Shown here piece after piece: positions 4,410-45,644 of a stretch of DNA of 64,000 nucleotides. A program made the position numbers and the translations under genes. The notes under the pieces were generated by a model. The model was not told where the DNA came from, ran no database searches, and saw only the letters and a list, made by a program, of their open reading frames with translations. The stretch's first letter is position 1, and every line of letters begins with the position of its first letter. The stretch is from a virus (Duplodnaviria > Caudoviricetes), in the IMG/VR virus record IMGVR_UViG_2030936005_000025, positions 160,001-224,000 of that record. The stretch is one strand, 5' to 3'.

Positions 4410-4426
4410 ATAATATCTGTTCAAGA
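4410..4426 (-). promoter_or_regulatory. early-type promoter motif
   Basis: Minus strand TCTTGAACAGATATTAT, matching the recurring motif. Confidence 0.5.
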
Positions 4427-4552: not shown

Positions 4553-5332
4553 TTAGAAATCGATGTCATCATCGAAGTCAGGGGTCTGCGCTTGGCGAGT
4601 CTGTCCGCCACCGCTGTTACCACCACCATTTCCGTTCCAGTTTGAACCGCCGCCCTGGTTGCCGCCTGAGTTGTTGTTGCCACCCCAGTTGTTTCCCCCG
4701 CGGTTGTTATTACCACCGTTGTCGCCACCTTTCTTCTCACGAGGTTTGAAGTTGTTGAACTCGTAATCTTCCAGGAAGCGTTTGGAGAAGTCGATAAACG
4801 CTTTGGCGTAGACACGTGACATCAGGCCACGGTTCTCAACCGGTTCGCCACCGTCAGCACTTGCCATCAGGATTACTGAGTCAAATGGAGAGGTGAACGG
4901 GAACATAACTTTGTAAGTACCCTTGGTGTAACCGACCAGGATACGACCTTCGTTATCACGGATAATGGTAAAGGTAGCCAGCGTTGATGGATGATCGTTC
5001 ATACGACCGCCCTGACCGAATACCGTTTTCTTAACCAGGTACTGAGACTTGGTGAAGTTAGGGTTACGGATCGCTTCTTCCATCAGACCGAAGATAGCGC
5101 CGCGGTCGAATACAGAGAGCTCGACTTCTTTGCTCTTAGCATTCTTGTCTTGCTGCCCCCAGACACCGTCGTTGACTTTGAAATAGATGTTACCGTTCAG
5201 GCCACACTCCCAGGTCCAGCGGGCTGGATACTTGGCACCTTCAACCGGCTTGTCTGAAGTTGGCATCGGATAACGGAAATCGTTGAACATGGTCTGTGGG
5301 CGACGTTGTACTTGTTCTTGTGGGAAAGACAT
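4553..5332 (-). CDS. putative single-stranded DNA-binding protein (phiKZ gp67-like)
   Basis: G/N-rich disordered linker and acidic C-terminus DFDDDIDF; synteny. Confidence 0.7.
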   Translation of the reverse strand: MSFPQEQVQRRPQTMFNDFRYPMPTSDKPVEGAKYPARWTWECGLNGNIYFKVNDGVWGQQDKNAKSKEVELSVFDRGAIFGLMEEAIRNPNFTKSQYLVKKTVFGQGGRMNDHPSTLATFTIIRDNEGRILVGYTKGTYKVMFPFTSPFDSVILMASADGGEPVENRGLMSRVYAKAFIDFSKRFLEDYEFNNFKPREKKGGDNGGNNNRGGNNWGGNNNSGGNQGGGSNWNGNGGGNSGGGQTRQAQTPDFDDDIDF

Positions 5333-6145: not shown

Positions 6146-7271
6146 TCATGACCTCGTCGAGTAAGTCCGCTAACATGTCACGATCAATGTCGTCATTCTG
6201 TTGAAGCGTGGATTCCATAAAGTTAAACAAACTATCCTTAAGGTTTCCATGGGTCAATGCCACACCGTTATACATTTCGGGAATGTACAGTGTATCATCG
6301 ATCTCGATGTTGTCCTCTTTAACATTCTCTAAGTCAAACGCGTATTGCGGATATTGCTCTTTGAAGTCATTAATCAGAGGTGTGGTAACAGATGACAATC
6401 CACCCACTAAACGAATGTGAGTGTTCTTCGGTGGTAACTTCGCTAAGTAATTGTTCAGTTCCTTTGCGACCTGCTTTGTATCCATCTCTTTATTGATCAG
6501 GATCTTATCATAGATCAGTGCGTTCTTGTTTTCCCAGAACTCAGCTTTGAAATCCTTGTCGTTAAACTCAAAACGATAAGCACCTTTTGGATGCATCTCA
6601 CCATGTGCGGTACGGTCAAATGAACCGGCACAATAAATGTTGAATCGTGTTGAGGGTTTGTGAATATGTCCGCTGAAGATGGCGTGCTTAGCTAACGCAC
6701 TCCACTTAACAGAATCATACAACGCACCTTTCTTGTTTGCCATTGGTGGAAGTTGATAATCAAACCCACCGTGCAAGAAGATGAAGTCTACCTGAGTCAG
6801 GTTCCACTCAGCCAATAACTTCAGGGCATTGTCGTAAATGATATCTGTAGATGTGTGACCGAAGTTATCCGGTACATACATACAGTGAATCTTCAACTCA
6901 GGAATGTACTCAATACTCAAGGTATTAATGTACTTGATATAAGGACTGTCCTTTGGCTTCAAGATATCAAAGCACTCAGGTTGCCCCCAATCGTGGGAAG
7001 AGGTTCCTTCCAGGACTCTGACATGAACTTTATTATCATGGCAGATTTGCAAGTGTTTCTTAATCCAACGATGACAGAGCATCATGTTTGGATCATTGGC
7101 CGGTGCTAAGTCGTGGAAGAAATCCCCATTCAGCACATTCAGATCAATCTCTGCCAGATTCGTTTCTTTATAGTAGAACGTATCCAGGTTGTTAAGAATA
7201 TGCCGCGTGGGAGTATTCGGGTGTATGGTGTGGTGATCGGTTGTTAAAACCGCTTTAAACATCTTTTTCAT
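6135..7271 (-). CDS. SbcD/Mre11-like metallophosphoesterase nuclease
   Basis: Motifs TDHH, GDFFH, GTSSHD, FLHGG, GHIH. Confidence 0.88.
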   Translation of the reverse strand: MKKMFKAVLTTDHHTIHPNTPTRHILNNLDTFYYKETNLAEIDLNVLNGDFFHDLAPANDPNMMLCHRWIKKHLQICHDNKVHVRVLEGTSSHDWGQPECFDILKPKDSPYIKYINTLSIEYIPELKIHCMYVPDNFGHTSTDIIYDNALKLLAEWNLTQVDFIFLHGGFDYQLPPMANKKGALYDSVKWSALAKHAIFSGHIHKPSTRFNIYCAGSFDRTAHGEMHPKGAYRFEFNDKDFKAEFWENKNALIYDKILINKEMDTKQVAKELNNYLAKLPPKNTHIRLVGGLSSVTTPLINDFKEQYPQYAFDLENVKEDNIEIDDTLYIPEMYNGVALTHGNLKDSLFNFMESTLQQNDDIDRDMLADLLDEVMNGS

Positions 7272-7296: not shown

Positions 7297-8097
7297 TTAG
7301 TCAGCTAACGGGTCGAATTCTTTATCAGGTTCGGAAGAAGTTTTGGTTTCTACTGTATTGCTTCCGTCGTTGAATTTAAATTCATGACCTGTTGATGCTG
7401 TAACTTCGGAGATCAGTTTCTTTTCATTGAAAGACAAAGTCTGACCGGTTGCATTACGATTGATGATACTTTCCAGTTGATCCAACAGTTGATCGTTACC
7501 ATTGATAGGTAATCCCTGATACGTTGCAGTATCACGCAGGTAGATGAACTGCTTAAGAGCTGCTGGGTTAACACCGTGACGCTGATAGTATTCATGCGGA
7601 ATCATCATGGTCAGGGTATCGTACTCAGGGTTCTGTTCGGTCAGCTTCTCAACGATATTGGTCAGCTCATTCAGAGTTGCATCCACTTCTGCTTTGTTCG
7701 GGTTGAACTTGGCATTAGCACCCATGGTACGAACATAATACTCCAGATAGCTCTGGTTGTTTACGCTCATGTCCATGTCGATGAACTTACGGATAACCAG
7801 AACCGGTTCTTTATCCTCGTTCAGGATAATGGCACCTTTGGTATAACCATCAGTCATACGGAACCAGGCATCTTGGTTGAAGTAGTTCTTATCGTTAATA
7901 AAACCGATAGCGAACTGAGTCAGCCAGTTCTGAACGAAATACTCTTCTTCCATCAAGATATATTCAGCGAACTCACCATCCGGTAACTGGATGATCTTCT
8001 TGCCGCTAATTTCCATTGCGCGAACAGAGCGCAGAAACTCTAAAAGCTTTCCGTGTTTCTGTTGGTCGATATTCTCAAAATCAGTTTCATTTGCCAT
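7297..8097 (-). CDS. hypothetical protein
   Basis: 266-aa ORF in the operon. Confidence 0.7.
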   Translation of the reverse strand: MANETDFENIDQQKHGKLLEFLRSVRAMEISGKKIIQLPDGEFAEYILMEEEYFVQNWLTQFAIGFINDKNYFNQDAWFRMTDGYTKGAIILNEDKEPVLVIRKFIDMDMSVNNQSYLEYYVRTMGANAKFNPNKAEVDATLNELTNIVEKLTEQNPEYDTLTMMIPHEYYQRHGVNPAALKQFIYLRDTATYQGLPINGNDQLLDQLESIINRNATGQTLSFNEKKLISEVTASTGHEFKFNDGSNTVETKTSSEPDKEFDPLAD

Positions 8098-9817: not shown

Positions 9818-10471
9818 TTATTCAGACTCTTCTTTACGACGTTCTTCTACTTCTTCCAGTGACAGAATCTTATCGTTGATCGTTGACGATGGATCGAAGA
9901 GATTCTTAGCCAGATGTAAGTTAGTAGCCTGCCAGGTACGATGGATGTTCACACGTTCCGAGAAGGTGAGGTGAGTCAGATCATCTCGAGAACTGGTAAA
10001 CATCGTTCGGTTCAGAGTTTGTTCCTCTTTATCGAACATGACTTTACCATCGATAGAACGGTTATAGAAATAGTTATCACGACCTATCCCGTTACATGCT
10101 GCATGGAAATCGCCATCATAGCCAGAGATACGCTCTTGCTGATAGAGTTCCATCATCATCGGGTTAGCCATGATATAATCTCGCATAAAGCCAGTTGCAG
10201 ATTGCTGATACTGAACTTCAGAGAGATAACCGATTTCAAACCGTCCTACATACTGGCCGTCTTTTCCGTTAATGCGATTACTGAATTCCCACATACGACT
10301 GTCCATAAAACTTTTGTGGGCTTCTTTTACGGAGTTGAGAGTGTCTCCAAGCCATCCAGTTAAGTTGTCATACTTCTGAAACATCGAGGCCATATAGTTA
10401 TCAAATACGGCGGCGCTGTTATCAGTCATCGATCCGCTGGATGCTCTCATAAAGGCAGCTGTTACGTTCAA
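9818..10471 (-). CDS. conserved hypothetical protein (phiKZ gp59-like)
   Basis: 217 aa, TTG start with a GAGGA RBS, follows the RNAP beta-prime gene; synteny. Confidence 0.65.
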   Translation of the reverse strand: MNVTAAFMRASSGSMTDNSAAVFDNYMASMFQKYDNLTGWLGDTLNSVKEAHKSFMDSRMWEFSNRINGKDGQYVGRFEIGYLSEVQYQQSATGFMRDYIMANPMMMELYQQERISGYDGDFHAACNGIGRDNYFYNRSIDGKVMFDKEEQTLNRTMFTSSRDDLTHLTFSERVNIHRTWQATNLHLAKNLFDPSSTINDKILSLEEVEERRKEESE

Positions 10472-14088: not shown

Positions 14089-14185
14089 GTATTCGATTCC
14101 TTTTAAACTTCGTGATATATAGATTAACGTTAATTTACATGGTGGGAGATAAGATGATTAAACATCTTGTCTACTATGCACTATA

Positions 14186-14202
14186 ATAATATAGACTTCA
14201 AA
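14186..14202 (-). promoter_or_regulatory. early-type promoter of chmA
   Basis: Minus strand TTTGAAGTCTATATTAT. Confidence 0.6.
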
Positions 14203-14359
14203 AATTATAGGAACACGTTTTTTCACAATAAATCGTATGTATACTTAAAAAATAAACGTACGACTCCCGTGTATCCTTAAGGATGACCCTTAAGAATTAG
14301 TTTACATAATATAGAAATGTTACGTAATTTTTTACGGAGCATCTCATGAGGTTTAACCA

Positions 14360-15465: not shown

Positions 15466-15495
15466 GAACTCTACCCGGATATCCGGGTAGAGTTC
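15466..15495. terminator. bidirectional terminator
   Basis: Perfect 30-nt palindrome gaactctacccggatatccgggtagagttc between convergent genes. Confidence 0.8.
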
Positions 15496-38815: not shown

Positions 38816-38860
38816 CTTTTCAATCCTAAGGTTAAAAACTAAGTGTGGTTCTTCACTCTA

Positions 38861-38877
38861 ATAATATCTATTTAATT
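38861..38877 (-). promoter_or_regulatory. early-type promoter motif
   Basis: Minus strand AATTAAATAGATATTAT. Confidence 0.45.
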
Positions 38878-38934
38878 AATTATGAGAGATCTTTATTTTA
38901 TGTAAGAAACGATGTCATTTTATTTTCATTTCGC

Positions 38935-39421
38935 TATGGGTATTTCTGAATGCCCATAATGAAGTGTGACCGCCATCGTGCTTCTTGGTAGTTTTGCCAT
39001 TCTTTATTGCTATCTACAAAGTGGGGAGGCGGCCTTCCTCCCCCTTTCCTTAAGTACATTTGATTGGGTGTATTTAAGGAAAGCATGGGGGCATGCTTTT
39101 ATTCTGTTGTAAGTCGTGGTTGTTAAAGGACCCAGAGGGTTGGTTTGACTTTTCCTCTTCCCTTTGGGTTCTTTATTTAACATTTCTCTATGTTTGTTTA
39201 TTGAGCTGACATAGAGAAGTGCGCGCCGGTACTTCTTATCCATGTTCTTGCTTCGCCAGATGGTTTGGCAGAGGGGCTTTAGGTAGCCCCTTCTTTCTAT
39301 GTGTATTTACGAGTATACATAGAAAGCGTACCTAGCTGGTATCGCCCATCCCGCTAGTTTTTCTATCGCCTTCTTTTCTAGCCGGGATTACTTAGCCCTG
39401 TGGGGAGATTTTCTACAGGGC
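38935..39421 (+). ncRNA. candidate structured RNA: tandem array of about 10 hairpins
   Basis: Consecutive 7-16 bp stems whose imperfect pairs are G-U on the plus strand, e.g. 39124-39139/39161-39176 and 39181-39193/39209-39221. Confidence 0.6.
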
Positions 39422-39440
39422 GCTTTTCAATGGAGAACCC

Positions 39441-39740
39441 ATGTCACAAGTTGATTTGAACACCCCTGCTTTCGTTAGCTATTCAAAGGCTAACGAGTCT
39501 ATGCTTTCCTCATTGAAAAGCAAGAAATCTGTTAAGTTCGCCCGTAAAGGCTGGAACGGTAAACAACTCCACGTCCAGGTACACGGATCCATTCCAACCA
39601 GTCAGGTTGATTTGGAGAATGGCGAGAACGCCTACATCGAACCTTTCTTTGTTATCGTTAACAAAGCAAACAGCCGCGTGAACATCTGGGTACCATCGGT
39701 CTCAGATCTGCAAGCTGAAGACTGGTACGAAGTTCAGTAA
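39441..39740 (+). CDS. tad2: Tad2-like (DUF2829) anti-Thoeris sponge
   Basis: Signatures RKGWNGK and WVPSVSDLQAEDW; 99 aa; GGAGA RBS. Confidence 0.85.
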   Translation: MSQVDLNTPAFVSYSKANESMLSSLKSKKSVKFARKGWNGKQLHVQVHGSIPTSQVDLENGENAYIEPFFVIVNKANSRVNIWVPSVSDLQAEDWYEVQ

Positions 39741-39783
39741 TTTATTAACGCAGAGTTTATACTCTGTTAAAGAATTCCAGCCG

Positions 39784-39860
39784 GAGAGTGTAGCACATTA
39801 GCTAAGTGCATCCGGTATCTCTCCCGAGCATACATGTTCCAGTCGGCGGGAAGAGATCCA
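39784..39860 (+). pseudogene. possible decayed tRNA
   Basis: TA-GCAC-9nt-GTGC-A D arm and a 5-bp/7-nt anticodon-like arm, but broken T and acceptor stems. Confidence 0.3.
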
Positions 39861-39978
39861 GAATTGACAGGACCACAATTTGGTTGATCAATCAATAGAT
39901 AAGTTTTATGTCAAGATAAGAACAGTCCTTTCACAGATTCTGAAAGTACACCAACTGTATCTAATCGAGATTAAATAG

Positions 39979-40203
39979 ATGAAACTTTATCTTATTGAGC
40001 GCACAGACAAAGTCTGCATATACGACAATTATTTTGCTACAGTGGTAGCAGCGCCCACAGAGGAAAGGTCACGTGAGTTAGCGTTGGCTTTATTCGCTCG
40101 AGGAGATGACTCGTCTTCGGATGAGTTCCTTGACGTAAGCACGATCGCTATAAACGCCCTTGTCCCTGAGGGTATAATCTTATCGGACTATAATGCCGGA
40201 TAA
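39979..40203 (+). CDS. small hypothetical protein
   Basis: MKLYLIER...VVAAPTEERSRELA, a pattern common in small phage proteins. Confidence 0.7.
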   Translation: MKLYLIERTDKVCIYDNYFATVVAAPTEERSRELALALFARGDDSSSDEFLDVSTIAINALVPEGIILSDYNAG

Positions 40204-40220
40204 GAGTAATGACCGCCTGG

Positions 40221-40313
40221 AATTCCCGGAACCTCAAATTAAATTTGAGATCGAAAGAACATTGACGCTGGTTGCGAGTTGATAACGAAACCAAAGTCAT
40301 GGCTCCGGGAATT
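40221..40313 (+). ncRNA. candidate small structured RNA
   Basis: 10-bp closing helix aattcccgga/tccgggaatt enclosing two inner stems. Confidence 0.4.
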
Positions 40314-40412
40314 ACTGATTTAAATATCGAAGGCGGTAATATTATTTAGAGTCTATCTTATTTATCTTTTGACTGAACTTTCTCAGTCACTAAAAATATA
40401 AAGGTAAGTAAA

Positions 40413-40895
40413 ATGGATTCTATTGGGATGTTACTGTTGGCATTAATTGCAGGTGTCGGTATTGGTTCTGCGATCACTATTTTGATTCAAAAGCGTCGCG
40501 ACGCTGGAACGGTTGGTACCAATCCAGAACTGCACGCGTATATCACTTCTGCCGAGGCTAAACTTCAGGCTCAAGTTGATGAGCTTAAAACAAAACTCCT
40601 ACCTGCCGATACACAAGAGAAACTCAAAGGTATTGGCGATGGGTTACTGTCAACGATCAAAGATAAACTGCTTGACGATCTCTCTGGTTTGAGACTCAAT
40701 GGCGAATCACATCTTCAGCAAATCGAAGATATCGTGAAACGCATTGAAGGTCTGACTGAAGCTGAACTCGTCAAACTGCATCTGGAAAAAGAAACACCGC
40801 CCGCTGATCCAGTGTTGGCTGTCTCTCCTTCCGATCCACAGACAGTAGTCTCTTCTGAACCAGCGATTCCTGCTGATCAGAATAAAGTCGTTTAA
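40413..40895 (+). CDS. membrane-anchored coiled-coil protein
   Basis: N-terminal TM, helical body, P-rich tail. Confidence 0.75.
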   Translation: MDSIGMLLLALIAGVGIGSAITILIQKRRDAGTVGTNPELHAYITSAEAKLQAQVDELKTKLLPADTQEKLKGIGDGLLSTIKDKLLDDLSGLRLNGESHLQQIEDIVKRIEGLTEAELVKLHLEKETPPADPVLAVSPSDPQTVVSSEPAIPADQNKVV

Positions 40896-40901
40896 GTATT
40901 T

Positions 40902-40977
40902 GCTTCCATAGTTCAGTCGGCAGAACGGTCGCCTGTTAAGCGATATGTCGCAGGTTCGAGTCCTGCTGGAAGCGCCA
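40902..40977 (+). tRNA. tRNA-Asn(GTT)
   Basis: Acceptor GCTTCCA/TGGAAGC, anticodon loop CTGTTAA, T-loop TTCGAGT, encoded CCA. Confidence 0.93.
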
Positions 40978-41003
40978 ATTTACATTCACATCTGCCAGTT
41001 ACT

Positions 41004-41107
41004 GCGGTCGTGTCTTCAGAGGCACCGTAAATGTATGATAGTGGATGATTAGTTTCTACCACTGGATATCTTTACAATAGTTAGGTTAAATCCCTAAGGC
41101 CGCGCCA
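41004..41107 (+). ncRNA. tRNA-like RNA 1 with extended anticodon arm
   Basis: GCGGTC/GGCCGC acceptor plus G-CCA; T arm TTAGG-TTAAATC-CCTAA; D-like stem GTGTC/GGCAC; ~49-nt central arm. Confidence 0.6.
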
Positions 41108-41116
41108 GATTTATAT

Positions 41117-41250
41117 GAGGGTCGTGTCGTGGGACACAAGTTCAGTTATGCTCTAGCGATCTAAGATCGTGAACCCGTTAGCGGTGAAGATAGACAACTC
41201 TACTTCAACTGTACTGAATGATAAGCCGAGTTCGACTCTCGGGATCCTCT
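41117..41250 (+). ncRNA. tRNA-like RNA 2 with branched insertion in place of the anticodon loop
   Basis: GAGGGTC/GATCCTC acceptor; T arm CCGAG-TTCGACT-CTCGG; D-like stem GTGTC/GACAC; GTTCAGT/ACTGAAT encloses 66 nt; no encoded CCA. Confidence 0.65.
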
Positions 41251-41323
41251 ATCAACTTCATAATGTCATGAAGATCCGTACCTACCGTTTTGGTTTTTGG
41301 TACCCAATCCATGAGGAAGTAAT

Positions 41324-41647
41324 ATGTCAAATTTAGAAAAAGAGTTAGAATCAAGATATTTCGCTCGCATTCCAGATGTTGGTGAGAGAACTAACAATGA
41401 TCCAGCTTATTTGATGTCAAGTAATGATGTCCTTAAACTGATCAAAGCTATGTACCAGGATGGTTGTGACGCATCTGGCGACAGTCTTGAACCTGAACGT
41501 TTTAAACACCCCATCATTCTGGATCGATCATCGGGTAAAGAAGTTATCACCAGTTATATGGTCCAGGGGATTATCAAAGAAGCCACCGTAAATCACGGAT
41601 GGTCTGATGTTAAGCTTTATGGTAAACAGCTTCTGTTTATTAAGTAA
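41324..41647 (+). CDS. hypothetical protein
   Basis: ORF with a GAGGA RBS, followed by a terminator-like hairpin. Confidence 0.75.
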   Translation: MSNLEKELESRYFARIPDVGERTNNDPAYLMSSNDVLKLIKAMYQDGCDASGDSLEPERFKHPIILDRSSGKEVITSYMVQGIIKEATVNHGWSDVKLYGKQLLFIK

Positions 41648-41709
41648 AATTAAATGAAGAGAGAAGGGGTCGGTTGATCCTTTCTCTTTTTGTTTGTCTG
41701 GAGATATTT

Positions 41710-41820
41710 ATGAGTATCTTAAAGAAGCTCCATAATTGGTTTTATAAAGACATGGTTTATTCTGTTTCTGCCGATGCTTGGTTTTACCAAGAAGGCGCAA
41801 CAGGTGAATGGGTGGATTAA
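41710..41820 (+). CDS. small hypothetical protein (36 aa, absent from the ORF track)
   Basis: MSILKKLHNWFYKDMVYSVSADAWFYQEGATGEWVD, GGAG RBS, abuts the next gene. Confidence 0.55.
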   Translation: MSILKKLHNWFYKDMVYSVSADAWFYQEGATGEWVD

Positions 41821-42060
41821 ATGAAAGATCAGATACCTGAAGGTTTTGTTCCAGATAACTTTAAGTTCATCAGTAACCAACCTCATTTAACAGTCAGTGG
41901 TTTTACTATGGTTAATCCCTTGGCCACCAAACTGTTAGTTGAAGTAGAGCGTCAATTAAAATCACCGCGCAATGCGATGCAAAAGAAAACAAGATCACCT
42001 TTAGATGTTCCTTCTTCTGGAATGTTCTATTGGTCACCTCTCAATTCAGTAGGAAAGTAA
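41821..42060 (+). CDS. hypothetical protein
   Basis: ORF abutting both neighbours. Confidence 0.65.
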   Translation: MKDQIPEGFVPDNFKFISNQPHLTVSGFTMVNPLATKLLVEVERQLKSPRNAMQKKTRSPLDVPSSGMFYWSPLNSVGK

Positions 42061-42315
42061 ATGAAAGTTGTGATTTACGGAAAACCTGCGTGCGTGTTCT
42101 GTACTCGTGCGAAGGACTTAGTTAAGGCCAAAGGAATCGATCATGAGTATGTCGATATCATCGAAACCGGCATGGGTCGTGAAGGCCTGGAAGAAATTGT
42201 GGGAGGTCCTGTTACGACCGTTCCTCAAATCTTTGTCGATAATGTTCATATTGGTGGTTATACTGATCTGGTATCTCACCTTGTCAAGTCTGACGAATCC
42301 GAAGTAAAGGTGTAA
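42061..42315 (+). CDS. glutaredoxin
   Basis: CVFC active site, TVPQIF, IGGY. Confidence 0.92.
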   Translation: MKVVIYGKPACVFCTRAKDLVKAKGIDHEYVDIIETGMGREGLEEIVGGPVTTVPQIFVDNVHIGGYTDLVSHLVKSDESEVKV

Positions 42316-42317
42316 TT

Positions 42318-42455
42318 ATGGATTTTGATTTGGATGATCTGAACCTTGAAGGTTTGGATGAAGCTGAAGCTCGTAACAATGAGCGCCAGGAAGCGGCTGA
42401 TAAAGCTGCGGCAGCGGTTGGCGATGAAGCTGACTGCGAAGGTTGTAAAATCTAA
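42318..42455 (+). CDS. 45-aa acidic peptide ending DCEGCKI (NrdA C-tail-like; absent from the ORF track)
   Basis: MDFDLDDLNLEGLDEAEARNNERQEAADKAAAAVGDEADCEGCKI, starting 2 nt after the glutaredoxin stop. Confidence 0.75.
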   Translation: MDFDLDDLNLEGLDEAEARNNERQEAADKAAAAVGDEADCEGCKI

Positions 42456-42481
42456 TTTTGATAAGGCGATAAGTTTTGACC

Positions 42482-42619
42482 ATGAAAAAGAAAAAGACTT
42501 CTTTGAAAGAAAAGATCCGTCGCCAGAATCAGAATGCTGAGAAGACCTTATACCTCGATGGCGCTGGTGATACTTTCACGATGACCAAAACCAAAGACGG
42601 CTATAAGTTAAACGTGTAG
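42482..42619 (+). CDS. small basic protein (45 aa, absent from the ORF track)
   Basis: MKKKKTSLKEKIRRQNQNAEKTLYLDGAGDTFTMTKTKDGYKLNV. Confidence 0.55.
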   Translation: MKKKKTSLKEKIRRQNQNAEKTLYLDGAGDTFTMTKTKDGYKLNV

Positions 42620-42681
42620 GGTAGCAATACCCTACTCCTATATTTCATCTCCAACCACTACTATGACCGAGAGAGAAGAAT

Positions 42682-43290
42682 ATGAAACTTAAGTTGATTA
42701 CTGTTGATAAACGTACCTACGCAATTAAGACTCGATATATCGAGCTGAATAGTGATGCCAGTGTGCATTACCGCTCCCCTATCACTGGAAAATTCCCAAC
42801 AGGGGATGACGATACAATTACTGATGTGCTCAGGTCAGCTCCACCTACTGCCGTTGCTGTTGTGTATTCTTGTAACAGAGAACCAATCTATATTGAAAAG
42901 CATGACGGTGCGTATGTTATCTCTGAAGCTAAGACCATTGAGATTGTCAATCAGCCAGTGGACTTCGATGATGTTGATTTCTGGGTTAACACCAAAGGCG
43001 AGGAAGAGTGGAAAAAGGTTGGACTAGGATATTACATTGAGTATTCTAGAGTACACCTGAATGACAGTTACCAGGTCGCTCAAAAGGATTTCAATTTAAA
43101 TGAAAAAATGCAAGGGATAGTCCACCTGCCAAACGGTCAACTTGGTAAAGCAGTAAGATGGTATCTCAATGGATCGAGGACTTGGCTTAGAGTCACTGAG
43201 GGGATGAGTGAGGATATTCTTTCTAAACTGACCGTGATCACTATCCTTGATGGAAAAAATCCTAATGACCCAGGGTATAAACTTCCATAA
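42682..43290 (+). CDS. hypothetical protein
   Basis: 202-aa ORF. Confidence 0.75.
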   Translation: MKLKLITVDKRTYAIKTRYIELNSDASVHYRSPITGKFPTGDDDTITDVLRSAPPTAVAVVYSCNREPIYIEKHDGAYVISEAKTIEIVNQPVDFDDVDFWVNTKGEEEWKKVGLGYYIEYSRVHLNDSYQVAQKDFNLNEKMQGIVHLPNGQLGKAVRWYLNGSRTWLRVTEGMSEDILSKLTVITILDGKNPNDPGYKLP

Positions 43291-43299
43291 GTATATTAT
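43283..43299 (+). promoter_or_regulatory. putative promoter of the large ncRNA
   Basis: TCCATAAGTATATTAT has the same spacing as TTCAGACCTATATTAC. Confidence 0.45.
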
Positions 43300-43309
43300 G
43301 TAATTCAAT

Positions 43310-44157
43310 CGAGTGTAACTGATCGCTGTTCTGCGGAATAGTATGGTTTCATCACCCCGTTATATTCGACTGTAAGACCCTCGTTATCCAGGTGTGGGTA
43401 CATAACGAGGGCAGTGTCCGGTGGGTTGCACTACCGGACTAAATCCAAGAGTGAACGGCGGCTTAAGCCCGCTACTGTAAGTAGCTCTTGGTTGGGTGAT
43501 ATTATGTACTTTCACTGCATAATGTCCTCTGGCGGTGGTTGGACTTTTGGCGTTCTTCGCCATTGTCTGACAGATCACCGCACCCCTTTGTACCAGTGGC
43601 TGATATCCAAGTAGAGCTTTAATTATACCTGACGGATAGCGCTCACAGTGTTTCAACCATTGGTACATCCTCTTGAGGATCTTGAACGAAAACCGTAGGG
43701 TAACCGCCGAGCACATTGCGTTGCATTCAAGGCGGCTTAAGCAGGGGACTAGGTAGTCTTCCTGGGTGATATCAAGATCCTCAAACCTACTACTCTCCGT
43801 GATATGGAGTAGACACCCCGTGGTGGGGGCATCGTAACCATCTGATGAGTCCGCGATGAGAAATAAAGAGACGAAACGGGTTCTGTCGTTCGGAGACTCC
43901 AACTCCTGACAGATCCGTCATGAATCGCTCTGCCTTAACTGTGAGGAGCAGCCTCAATCTACGATTCTAGAGGAACAGCAGCGTTACTGAAAGATCCACG
44001 GCAAATGGATCGAAGCAGATAACAAACAGTCCGCTCCCTTTGCCAGGGGAGAAGTTGTTAAAACCAAGAGGTGTAGACAGCCTTTAGATCACCGTGGTAG
44101 TAAAATGGGGTTGCTCCCAGAGTAGCTATCAGAAAGTGGTCTTTAGAGTGGCTATAC
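43310..44157 (+). ncRNA. large (~850 nt) structured RNA containing a hammerhead ribozyme
   Basis: No credible ORF; many nested helices (43378-87/43402-11, 43590-99/43657-66, 43674-85/43772-83, 43325-31/43973-79); G-U pairs favour the plus strand. Confidence 0.72.
43827..43935 (+). ncRNA. type I hammerhead ribozyme
   Basis: CTGATGA 43842-48, stem II GTC/GAC, GAAA 43873-76, long stem III, GTC triplet 43917-19, stem I CAT/ATG extended by GGCA/TGCC. Confidence 0.8.
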
Positions 44158-44180
44158 AAAAAAAAATAACAGATCGAGAT

Positions 44181-44208
44181 CCTCTACTCTCCTAACGGAG
44201 AGTAGAGG
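44181..44208. terminator. bidirectional terminator
   Basis: cctctactctcc-taac-ggagagtagagg between convergent units. Confidence 0.8.
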
Positions 44209-44214
44209 TAATCT

Positions 44215-44640
44215 TTATGCTGTCAAATAAAGTTCAGCCCAGATTTTAAATAAACGTTTCATGTCATTTGCGATCAATCCTAATGCCCGTGTATTTTTCA
44301 AGTTACCGGCATACAACCAAAGTTCACACTCAGGTTCACCTACGATCACAATGTCATTGAAATACATGACCAGAGATTTGGATGAGGTAGCAATGAGATC
44401 TTTGCGATTAACTGCAAAGCAGAATTCATTGGATTCAAGAATCACATTGTAGAAATAAGTGAACAGAGCTGCATCAAAACTGTCTGGTTCTAATTCATAA
44501 GTCTCAGCTAACTTAATGCTCTCCTCTTCATTAATAGCTAATTTAGTCAGAGAGTCGTTACCGGTGATAGCAGACAGGTTGCGTTTGAAGATGGTTTCCA
44601 TGATAGCTTTCCTTAATAAGTTAAGAACATTATTGTTCAT
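44215..44640 (-). CDS. hypothetical protein
   Basis: ORF directly after the promoter at 44650. Confidence 0.7.
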   Translation of the reverse strand: MNNNVLNLLRKAIMETIFKRNLSAITGNDSLTKLAINEEESIKLAETYELEPDSFDAALFTYFYNVILESNEFCFAVNRKDLIATSSKSLVMYFNDIVIVGEPECELWLYAGNLKNTRALGLIANDMKRLFKIWAELYLTA

Positions 44641-44649
44641 ATTACTTAA

Positions 44650-44666
44650 ATGATATAGGGCTGAAA
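44650..44666 (-). promoter_or_regulatory. early-type promoter
   Basis: Minus strand TTTCAGCCCTATATCAT. Confidence 0.6.
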
Positions 44667-44789: not shown

Positions 44790-45644
44790 ATGAGTTTAAG
44801 CAACCCGGTCGATTTTGCTATCGACTATGTGATAAACGGTCCGACCGATATCACGGAATATTTGTTAAAGCTTGCATTCTATAATCCGAACAACGGGTAC
44901 AATGCAATCTGGGGTCCGATGAATGACTCGTTTAGTATCGAGCAAGGTATCCGTGAGAAAGTTGTGAATAAGATGGTCGCTCCTCTACTTAAAGTAGCTG
45001 GCGGTCAAACTGAGATCATTGATCTTTCTGGTGCTCAAATTGAGAACCTGGCGGGTGGTGTTATCTGGGTCAGTGTTCCTGACTTCTTAACCGGTGGCCG
45101 TCGTATTCTGGAAGTCATAGAAGTGTATCCAGGAAACATTAACCGAGCGATTGCTAATGGTTATAACTTTGGTAACTACGCTAACTGTGGTGCCAGTATG
45201 ATGAACAACTCACTGAACCGTTTAATCAGTGGTCTGGATGACGGTAACGTCACCCGTTCATTCAACAGCTTCACCATGGTGGGTCCAAACTCCTTTATCA
45301 TTCGTGATGCAGGTTCAGCCATGTTTAATATGATCGCCAAAGTAATCTTGTCTTATGACGAGAACTTTAGCGGTGTTCCTGTTAAGATGTTTGATAAGTT
45401 TGCTGAACTCGTTGAGTTAGGCACTAAAGCCTACATCTATAAAACGTGTCGCCGTGGTATGCAGGAAGCTGTATCACGTTTCGGTGTAACAGTCGATGAC
45501 GTTCAGGATGATATTCAAGGTTATGCCGATGCTGCTCAGCAATTCAAAGACTTCTATAATGACCGAATGAAGAAGTATATGGCCTACGCTGATGCTAAAG
45601 GTAAGACTGACACTCTTAAAATGATTGTTCCAAGGAAACGATAA
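44790..45644 (+). CDS. conserved hypothetical protein, possibly virion-associated
   Basis: 284 aa with a GAGG RBS. Confidence 0.6.
   Translation: MSLSNPVDFAIDYVINGPTDITEYLLKLAFYNPNNGYNAIWGPMNDSFSIEQGIREKVVNKMVAPLLKVAGGQTEIIDLSGAQIENLAGGVIWVSVPDFLTGGRRILEVIEVYPGNINRAIANGYNFGNYANCGASMMNNSLNRLISGLDDGNVTRSFNSFTMVGPNSFIIRDAGSAMFNMIAKVILSYDENFSGVPVKMFDKFAELVELGTKAYIYKTCRRGMQEAVSRFGVTVDDVQDDIQGYADAAQQFKDFYNDRMKKYMAYADAKGKTDTLKMIVPRKR

Follow-up and report, generated by a model that had tools for sequence, protein, structure and literature searches.

The block at positions 38880-44210 of a 64,000-nt DNA window is, in our reading, an RNA and tRNA module of OBP-like nucleus-forming jumbo phages that is vertically inherited and carries a mixed cargo; we put the probability of this reading at roughly 0.6. 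The window comprises bases 160001-224000 of a 264,203-bp phage genome (44% G+C; IMG/VR record IMGVR_UViG_2030936005_000025), and all coordinates below are those of the window. Only the Tad2-like protein of the block matches an anti-defence family, and the glutaredoxin (Grx) and the tRNA have ordinary explanations, which leads us to a clade-specific RNA and tRNA module with mixed cargo. At the least, the block holds three or four RNA classes absent from databases. Its principal elements are as follows.

38902-39425, plus strand: hairpin-array RNA or 5′ leader (minimum free energy (MFE) -206.5 kcal/mol, z -10.3)
39441-39740, plus strand: Tad2-like (DUF2829) protein of 99 aa (PF11195)
40902-40977, plus strand: tRNA-Asn (GTT) with encoded CCA (ARAGORN; Rfam RF00005, 71 bits)
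41003-41107, plus strand: tRNA-shaped RNA A (alifold of 5 phages, 36 pairs, 14 compensatory; z -2.3)
41117-41249, plus strand: tRNA-shaped RNA B (5 phages, 46 pairs, 12 compensatory; z -2.65)
42061-42315, plus strand: Grx of 84 aa with a CVFC active site (PF00462, E 1.5e-16; phrog_22)
42318-42455, plus strand: acidic 45-aa CxxC peptide with C-terminal CEGCKI (phrog_10239)
43300-44208, plus strand: large structured non-coding RNA of ~910 nt (z -8.2)
43830-43922, plus strand: type I hammerhead, cut predicted between 43919 and 43920

Synteny was assessed by tblastn and from annotation in ten OBP-like genomes from seven host genera (Erwinia, Pantoea, Kosakonia, Serratia, Edwardsiella, Pseudomonas and Shewanella). 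The common order starts with a minus-strand gene of ~200 aa and a divergent region of 600-800 nt that contains the array, followed by Tad2 and variable small open reading frames (ORFs), then by tRNAs (Asn, with or without Ser, Arg, Met, Tyr and Cys), Grx, the hammerhead RNA and virion proteins of 284 and 490 aa. The elements are thus not scattered independently among relatives; such scattering was the first of the outcomes that the earlier note on this DNA, made from the sequence letters, had named as refuting its proposal. Homologues of Tad2 are present in 9 relatives at 44-89% identity, Grx is found in every OBP-like relative as well as in Aeromonas phage D3, and the order of the two genes is kept down to 44-50% identity. 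Phage D3 has the tRNAs and Grx only, and the block is absent from Miami, pTD1 and phiKZ. Since the flanking core genes are equally collinear, the linkage may reflect vertical inheritance and is not by itself proof of functional coupling. The virion gene that flanks the block is one such chimallivirus core gene (22% identity to phiKZ gp042).

The nearest public relative of the block is Erwinia phage AH04 (Meadowvirus), with ~82% nucleotide identity over 44% of its length. ORFs between 21.8 and 38.8 kb lie on the minus strand and those at 39441-43290 on the plus strand; the two TTG ORFs that this minus-strand region has on the plus strand, at 28.1 and 37.0 kb, overlap minus-strand ATG ORFs, and the AH04 annotation over the counterpart of 31.6-38.8 kb lists minus-strand genes only. 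The earlier note had described a plus-strand block inside a minus-strand region, and both the ORF strands and the AH04 annotation bear this out. Each element it had placed there, namely the hairpin array, Tad2, the tRNA, the tRNA-like RNAs, the redox pair and the ribozyme RNA, was verified. Its estimate that roughly a third of the block is non-coding proved too low: ORFs cover 2718-2865 of 5331 nt, leaving 46-49%. No other ORF-free gap in the genome is as large as either of two regions, 38816-39440 and 43291-44214 (unconserved ORFs inside them excluded); the largest of the others measures 509 nt.

The plus strand restarts at 44790 with two virion genes, followed by the genes for thymidylate kinase (Tmk) and terminase, and the sole break between the block and these genes is one minus-strand ORF of 141 aa. 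In AH04, pEt-SU, Kc263, Survivor, OBP, Yubaba and SXP01 the block runs directly into the virion genes. The block is therefore not a closed island; it forms the 5′ portion of a plus-strand cluster that extends beyond it. The 141-aa ORF, which was found in two IMG/VR relatives, interrupts this cluster and is not a member of the module.

Structured RNAs of the block

The 924-nt region 43291-44214 is non-coding, as judged from mismatches to four relatives, which are spread evenly over codon positions (e.g., 27/31/35), and from frequent 1-2-nt indels. A minus-strand ORF of 172 aa at 43384-43902 was ruled out as a gene on these two grounds and by its absence in relatives; a small ORF starting from the ATG after the predicted cut site was likewise ruled out, as it is not conserved. 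At the RNA level, 21 of the 37 consensus pairs of the 5′ domain are compensatory, blocks of conserved sequence recur in 8-11 phages, and the length of the RNA is ~0.9-1.1 kb across relatives. Rfam searches at the gathering score and at E values up to 10 retrieved the tRNA only, with no hammerhead, GOLLD, ROOL, Y-RNA or tmRNA.

The large RNA contains the only hammerhead of the genome. It is composed of a pseudoknot strand (43830-43835), helix I (43839-43841 with 43920-43922), the core CUGAUGA (43842-43848), helix II, GAAA, a long helix III and GUC. Eleven of eleven related jumbo phages have, in this order, CUGAYGA (CUGAAGA in Kc263), GUC, a loop, GACGAAACGGG, a hairpin and CCGUC. The core positions C3-U4-G5-A6-N7-G8-A9 (CUGAYGA) and G12-A13-A14 (GAAA) are invariant in the 11 phages, and without exception A15.1-U16.1 is AU and N17 is C. 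Of the three helices around the core, II and III are closed and I is open. Helix I covaries (CAU/AUG, CC/GG, CACC/GGUG, CUAU/AUAG and CAG/CUG), helix II ranges from GUC/GAC to GUCUG/CAGAC across relatives, and the pseudoknot of 5-7 bp that joins loop II to the strand 5′ of helix I covaries as well (CAUCGU/GCGAUG, CGUCG/CGACG, UGUCGU/ACGACA and GUUCGUA/UGCGAAC). In the fitted alignment, 90% of cells were paired and 14 of 23 pairs were compensatory, which none of 500 shuffles equalled; when the alignments were slid as a control, paired cells dropped to 30-44%. With these features, the large RNA is predicted to cleave itself between 43919 and 43920 into parts of ~620 and ~290 nt.

The covariance model R1 gave 81-114 bits in the 11 phages and also matched hammerheads, canonical by sequence, in unrelated phage contigs. 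The Rfam hammerhead models at the gathering score did not match the hammerhead studied here. As a control, four hammerhead-pattern sites of the other phage contigs, canonical by sequence and scoring 25-36 bits with R1, were searched and were missed as well; the Rfam negative therefore carries little weight. An alternative type III register (GUG triplet; Hammerhead_3, 19.4 bits) was rejected, since its 5′ strand is not conserved beyond near relatives and instead forms a covarying hairpin of its own with a UGGUG loop. Klebsiella phage Miami carries a canonical hammerhead (32 bits with R1; locus 4769-4867, minus strand). It lies on the strand opposite to that of the homologous virion gene, ~2 kb upstream of this gene, where tiny ORFs are the only annotation.

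At 43500-43560 the large RNA is without ~130-170 nt that are present in AH04 (locus ~9900-10130), and one IMG/VR relative is similarly shortened. The segment kept in AH04 and in distant relatives holds conserved GCAACGCG..GAUAGAAUG..UAGAACCCGAAC blocks. Its loss from two phages means that this domain of the RNA is dispensable.

The tRNA-Asn is the only tRNA in the whole 264-kb genome, and it folds into a canonical cloverleaf. Its anticodon loop is CUGUUAA, which we take to be the ordinary loop of E. coli and other enterobacterial tRNA-Asn. Asn accounts for 5.9% of codons in the phage proteome, compared with ~4% in E. coli, and the tRNA would supply this Asn-rich proteome. In phage 201phi2-1, a phage tRNA under a middle promoter has been read as translation support (PMC11512511).

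RNA A begins within 25 nt of the end of tRNA-Asn, and RNA B begins 9 nt past RNA A. The former has an acceptor-like stem of 6-7 bp, a D-like hairpin, an arm of ~50 nt with an invariant apical loop and a T-like arm, and its 3′ end is GCCA in four of the five phages. The latter has an acceptor-like stem, a D-like hairpin, a branched domain of ~80 nt and a canonical T-arm (UUCGACU loop), with no CCA, and is 94-97% identical in pEt-SU and one IMG/VR phage. Neither was called by ARAGORN or Rfam, and neither is a canonical tRNA, the 50- and 80-nt domains replacing the anticodon arm. What they share with tRNAs is confined to the acceptor-like and T-like arms and, in RNA A, the 3′ GCCA. The signature motifs of both RNAs occur in IMG/VR in these jumbo phages only.

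Some relatives hold tRNAs with a long variable arm (class II shaped) where others hold tRNA-Asn and tRNA-Ser(GCT). Those of AH04 (locus 7798-7883) and SXP01 (locus 6938-7024) have a GCA (Cys) anticodon and U73-CCA, a class II tRNA-Cys being unusual, and that of pEt-SU (locus 4749-4834) has a GTA (Tyr) anticodon. In AH04 and pEt-SU the class II shaped tRNA is the only tRNA of the block; SXP01 also has a tRNA-Ser.

The array extends over ~520 nt and contains about ten hairpins. Its complement on the minus strand folds more weakly (MFE -153.1, z -5.7). The region can be aligned across eight phages with visible stem covariation, and in these phages the hairpin modules of the array pair better on the plus strand (14-19 pairs) than on the minus strand (11-14 pairs). 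Two modules of the CUUUCUUUAU..AUAAAGAAAG type, at 39044-39083 and 39293-39326, occur in the genome only within the array region.

A search for terminator-like hairpins retrieved 16, compared with 5.2 +/- 2.5 in shuffles, and five of these lie inside the array on the plus strand. The last and strongest (39395-39421) ends 20 nt before the Tad2 start codon; a further promoter would not fit into this gap, so that transcription has to read through the hairpin to reach Tad2. Such an arrangement would suit a regulatory leader, i.e., an attenuator or antitermination leader that mainly sets the flow to Tad2 and downstream genes and is not a source of functional RNAs, and small RNAs made by premature termination in 5′ untranslated regions (5′UTRs) are known in 201phi2-1, as is a tRNA under a middle promoter (PMC11512511). 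However, the last array hairpin is absent from AH04, and the repeated module with its conserved GAGU loop resembles a binding site more than a plain terminator. We regard a mainly regulatory array as possible, on balance rather unlikely.

Promoter motifs, terminators and predicted transcripts

The following signals delimit the block and its last unit.

38854-38868, minus strand: early-type promoter motif GATATTATTAGAGTG (position weight matrix (PWM) scan), which would serve the leftward operon and marks the divergent region at the left edge of the block
38894-38905, plus strand: promoter-like motif TATTTTATGTAA (TATATTATGTRA in relatives), contains TATG, start predicted at G38902
43292-43303, plus strand: second copy of this motif, TATATTATGTAA, start predicted at G43300
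44181-44208: terminator, a perfect 12-bp palindrome (CYCTACTC..GAGTAGRG) where the block and the minus-strand ORF converge
44215-44640, minus strand: ORF of 141 aa, variable, preceded by an early-type motif of its own (44643-44657, 17 nt upstream)

The early motif at 38854-38868 is conserved in 8 phages. A motif found de novo, KATATTATYWAAGTG with upstream TTTCAGRC, agrees with the consensus that has been published for early promoters of OBP and N1M2 (PMC7058600). There are ~26 copies of it genome-wide, all on the minus strand (examples in the window are at 4417, 14193, 31045, 38868, 44657, 49313 and 52377), and early transcription therefore seems confined to one strand. Accordingly, the canonical early-promoter PWM had no match on the plus strand. 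A scan for sigma-70 promoters revealed no enrichment (13 found, 15.8 expected).

On the plus strand, a TATATTATGTRA-type motif heads the block in all eight aligned phages. It includes TATG, the start-site consensus of late promoters of the phiKZ non-virion RNA polymerase (PMC7618050); the occurrence of TATG ahead of plus-strand genes was not used as evidence, this motif being too short. This phage shares the copy in front of the large RNA with AH04 and three IMG/VR relatives; more distant relatives have none there. In Yubaba, the large RNA comes directly after tRNA-Met. The TATATTATGTAA motif also occurs at 14312 on the minus strand, ahead of ~220 nt without an ORF, and this region (14089-14359) may be another RNA gene.

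The palindrome at the right end of the block belongs to a family (11-13 bp, CYCTACTC..GAGTAGRG) with ~25 sites in the genome, all of them intergenic and most at convergent junctions, which makes them probable bidirectional terminators. The sites in the window are at 15466, 24985, 31090, 44181, 47763, 51745 and 61171; none was found between 38.9 and 44.18 kb. For 38.9-43.3 kb, a long precursor with partial termination is plausible given the arrangement of these signals, and the large RNA probably has its own start in this phage.

Tad2, the redox pair and the small ORFs

The Tad2-like protein matches PF11195 with 55.8 bits (E 6.6e-15; cut-off 25 bits). Among chains of the Protein Data Bank (PDB), it matches 9eib (MoTad2) and 8v3e at 4e-9 over residues 23-97 and SPO1 Tad2 (8sme) at 3.4e-7. 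The resemblance to the sponges SPO1 Tad2 and MoTad2 is full-length and includes the GWNGK and W-PS-SD-AEDW motifs. Homologues of Tad2 block Thoeris of types I, II and IV as well as Pycsar and CBASS (10.1101/2025.08.24.671296). Since such homologues are proven signal sponges, the protein can fairly be considered a candidate immune-signal sponge. The Tad2/DUF2829 family also contains AcrIIA7, and the target of the protein studied here is therefore not readable from its sequence.

The CxxC peptide begins 2 nt past the Grx stop codon and is kept in AH04, Survivor and IMG/VR relatives. Together with the nearby thymidylate kinase, Grx and this peptide point to nucleotide metabolism. For the nine other ORFs of the block, searches of Pfam, PHROG and Atlas gave no informative match to a function. 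These ORFs and the remaining features between them include the following.

39741-39978, plus strand: IG2, a conserved structured intergenic element (alifold 38 pairs, 8 compensatory)
39979-40203, plus strand: orf74 (phrog_5444)
40204-40345, plus strand: hairpin with a strong fold (z -4.6), half of it conserved
40413-40895, plus strand: orf160, an N-terminal hydrophobic segment followed by a charged region
41324-41647, plus strand: orf107, variable, absent from AH04
~41655-41695, plus strand: terminator-like hairpin after orf107, read from the sequence
41821-42060, plus strand: orf79
42476-42619, plus strand: orf47, with a terminator-like hairpin (42616-42635) behind it
42682-43290, plus strand: orf202, poorly conserved (36-40% identity)

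IG2 is 87% identical in AH04 and 75% in Kc263, with a partial match in OBP. A UYCCAG/UCCA motif is present both in an IG2 hairpin loop (39835-39850) and in the apical loop of hammerhead helix III (43895-43905), likewise in relatives, and may represent a shared binding or kissing site. The hairpin at 40204-40345 was dropped as an RNA gene, being conserved over half its length only; its first ~100 nt (40204-40305) have no counterpart in AH04 or the IMG/VR relatives, and it may be a recent insertion. A weak ATATTATTTAGAGT motif is located at 40339, ahead of orf160. The position of orf202 is occupied in AH04 by AH04_13.

A probable mixed-cargo module, rival readings and known systems

On the reading that we prefer, transcription would begin at the conserved TATATTATG-type motif, opposite the early promoter, and the ~520-nt array of very stable hairpins would act as a leader that can also yield prematurely terminated small RNAs. 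A mixed polycistron would follow, with Tad2, the small ORFs, tRNA-Asn, RNAs A and B, and Grx with the CxxC peptide. As with the tRNA cluster of T4, host tRNA-processing enzymes would excise tRNA-Asn together with RNAs A and B. The last unit would be the ~0.9-kb RNA, in this phage headed by a promoter motif of its own and closed by a canonical terminator, and it would be cut by its type I hammerhead. The functions would be mixed as well: a candidate sponge in Tad2, support of an Asn-rich proteome by tRNA-Asn and nucleotide reduction by Grx.

Several points weigh against this reading. Its mixed functions rest partly on missing annotation. The promoter class was guessed from a motif of 12 nt, of which the genome has only four intergenic copies. 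The palindromic terminators occur about once per 10 kb genome-wide, so that their absence inside the block is not significant, and five or more terminator-like hairpins do lie inside it, one just before Tad2. Our literature search found no transcript data for this clade. For this phage, the presence of the second promoter motif speaks against one precursor that includes the large RNA. The idea of a single co-transcribed precursor, put forward in the earlier note, is thus plausible for most of the block and is not supported for the whole of it, given the second motif and the internal terminator-like hairpins. The processing into several RNAs that was proposed along with it fares better, as the tRNA, the tRNA-like ends and the hammerhead supply the features from which such processing can be predicted.

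One could suppose that the strand switch by the tRNA genes is a hot spot that collects small genes and mobile RNA-like elements with no common function or transcript. Even close relatives indeed differ in content: no AH04 match was obtained for orf107, RNA B or the 141-aa ORF, RNAs A and B are patchy across the clade, orf202 is weakly conserved, and the hairpin segment 40204-40305 is unique to this phage. Moreover, RNA B is 94% identical in pEt-SU, compared with ~50-70% for the block proteins, which could mean recent transfer. Against accretion stand, however, the fixed skeleton of array, Tad2, tRNAs, Grx and hammerhead RNA in ten genomes, the conserved promoter motif that heads the block, and the compensatory changes in its RNAs, which imply long-term selection in place. 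We therefore consider accretion unlikely.

Another possibility is one co-transcribed counter-defence module, in which Tad2 would be a sponge, and the tRNA, the tRNA-shaped RNAs and perhaps other RNAs would replace or decoy tRNAs attacked by host nucleases. For other phages it is established that their tRNAs can neutralise tRNA-cutting defences (T5; PARIS or retron systems). Membership of Tad2 in a family whose homologues block Thoeris, Pycsar and CBASS agrees with this proposal (10.1101/2025.08.24.671296), as do the conserved linkage of the elements and the strong constraint on RNAs A and B (94-97% identity), which adjoin real tRNAs. Yet of ~ten block proteins only one is a member of an anti-defence family, nucleotide metabolism is what Grx and the CxxC peptide suggest, neither RNA A nor RNA B has an anticodon-like loop similar to a known nuclease target, and the linkage is no tighter than that of the flanking core genes. 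The anticodon loop of tRNA-Asn appears ordinary. In addition, sponges are expected early, and the plus strand is without the early-promoter consensus. Of the claim in the earlier note that the elements jointly counter signalling- and tRNA-targeting defences, the part that concerns Tad2 finds support in its family; the other ORFs, with no anti-defence match, and Grx, with its link to nucleotide metabolism, do not fit it, and we hold a joint counter-defence function to be quite improbable. The same low probability applies to an RNA-based takeover or counter-defence toolkit of one branch, in which RNAs A and B would be decoys or substitutes for attacked tRNAs, the array would bind a host or phage RNA-binding factor, and the hammerhead would mature the large RNA without host RNases, e.g., in the phage nucleus, from which host RNases may be excluded.

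Nucleus-forming jumbo phages have been studied for DNA shielding and protein sorting, and their RNA biology is barely explored. One whole branch of them keeps a dedicated locus in which a conserved predicted ribozyme in an RNA of ~1 kb, two tRNA mimics and an array RNA, none of them in Rfam, stand beside a candidate sponge. The mixed-cargo module makes concrete predictions, namely that RNAs start at 38902 and 43300, that the large RNA is cut between 43919 and 43920 and that one tRNA mimic has a CCA end, and it raises the question of how RNA is matured in, and exported from, the phage nucleus. Should the RNAs oppose tRNA-targeting defences, they would constitute a new kind of counter-defence; otherwise they would still be new RNA classes. 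A search of the literature on jumbo-phage hammerheads and non-coding RNAs, and on Tad2 with tRNAs, returned nothing on this locus.

The locus can be compared with several known systems. Anti-defence islands resemble it in that an anti-defence gene lies among small ORFs in a variable region. They are expected to hold at least two recognisable anti-defence genes, whereas here Tad2 is the only one, nearly half of the block consists of RNA genes, and the skeleton is vertically conserved and not shuffled. The 5′UTR small RNAs of chimalliviruses (201phi2-1 and phiKZ) are likewise structured, early-terminating leaders, one of them directly upstream of a tRNA (PMC11512511). In contrast, the putative leader of the block extends over 520 nt, with about ten hairpins and a module that recurs.

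The hammerhead agrees with type I hammerheads in the CUGAYGA and GAAA core, A15.1-U16.1, the GUC site, three covarying helices and the loop II pseudoknot. It differs from typical members of this class in its helix II of 3-6 bp with a 15-20-nt loop, its helix I of 2-4 bp, its long helix III with a conserved UYCCA loop, its location within an RNA of ~0.9-1.1 kb and its scores below Rfam thresholds. GOLLD and ROOL, phage RNAs of 0.6-0.8 kb often found beside tRNA genes, are, like the large RNA, large, highly structured and phage-borne. Unlike them, the large RNA has no Rfam match (E up to 10) and carries a hammerhead.

The closest parallel is the tRNA cluster of T4, in which RNAs C and D (species 1 and 2) are located, so that tRNAs stand beside tRNA-related RNAs with small ORFs between them. 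The function of T4 RNAs C and D is still unknown, and they are classed as late (PMC9697503). In the block, too, a tRNA gene adjoins conserved non-tRNA RNAs with tRNA-like ends, and the host tRNA-processing enzymes that make the RNA ends in the T4 cluster are predicted to do the same here. The two clusters show no sequence relation; the block has one true tRNA and oversized arms at the anticodon position, and it contains in addition the hairpin-array RNA, the hammerhead-bearing 0.9-kb RNA and the Tad2 gene. The locus is thus a phage tRNA and stable-RNA cluster that carries RNA classes not yet described.

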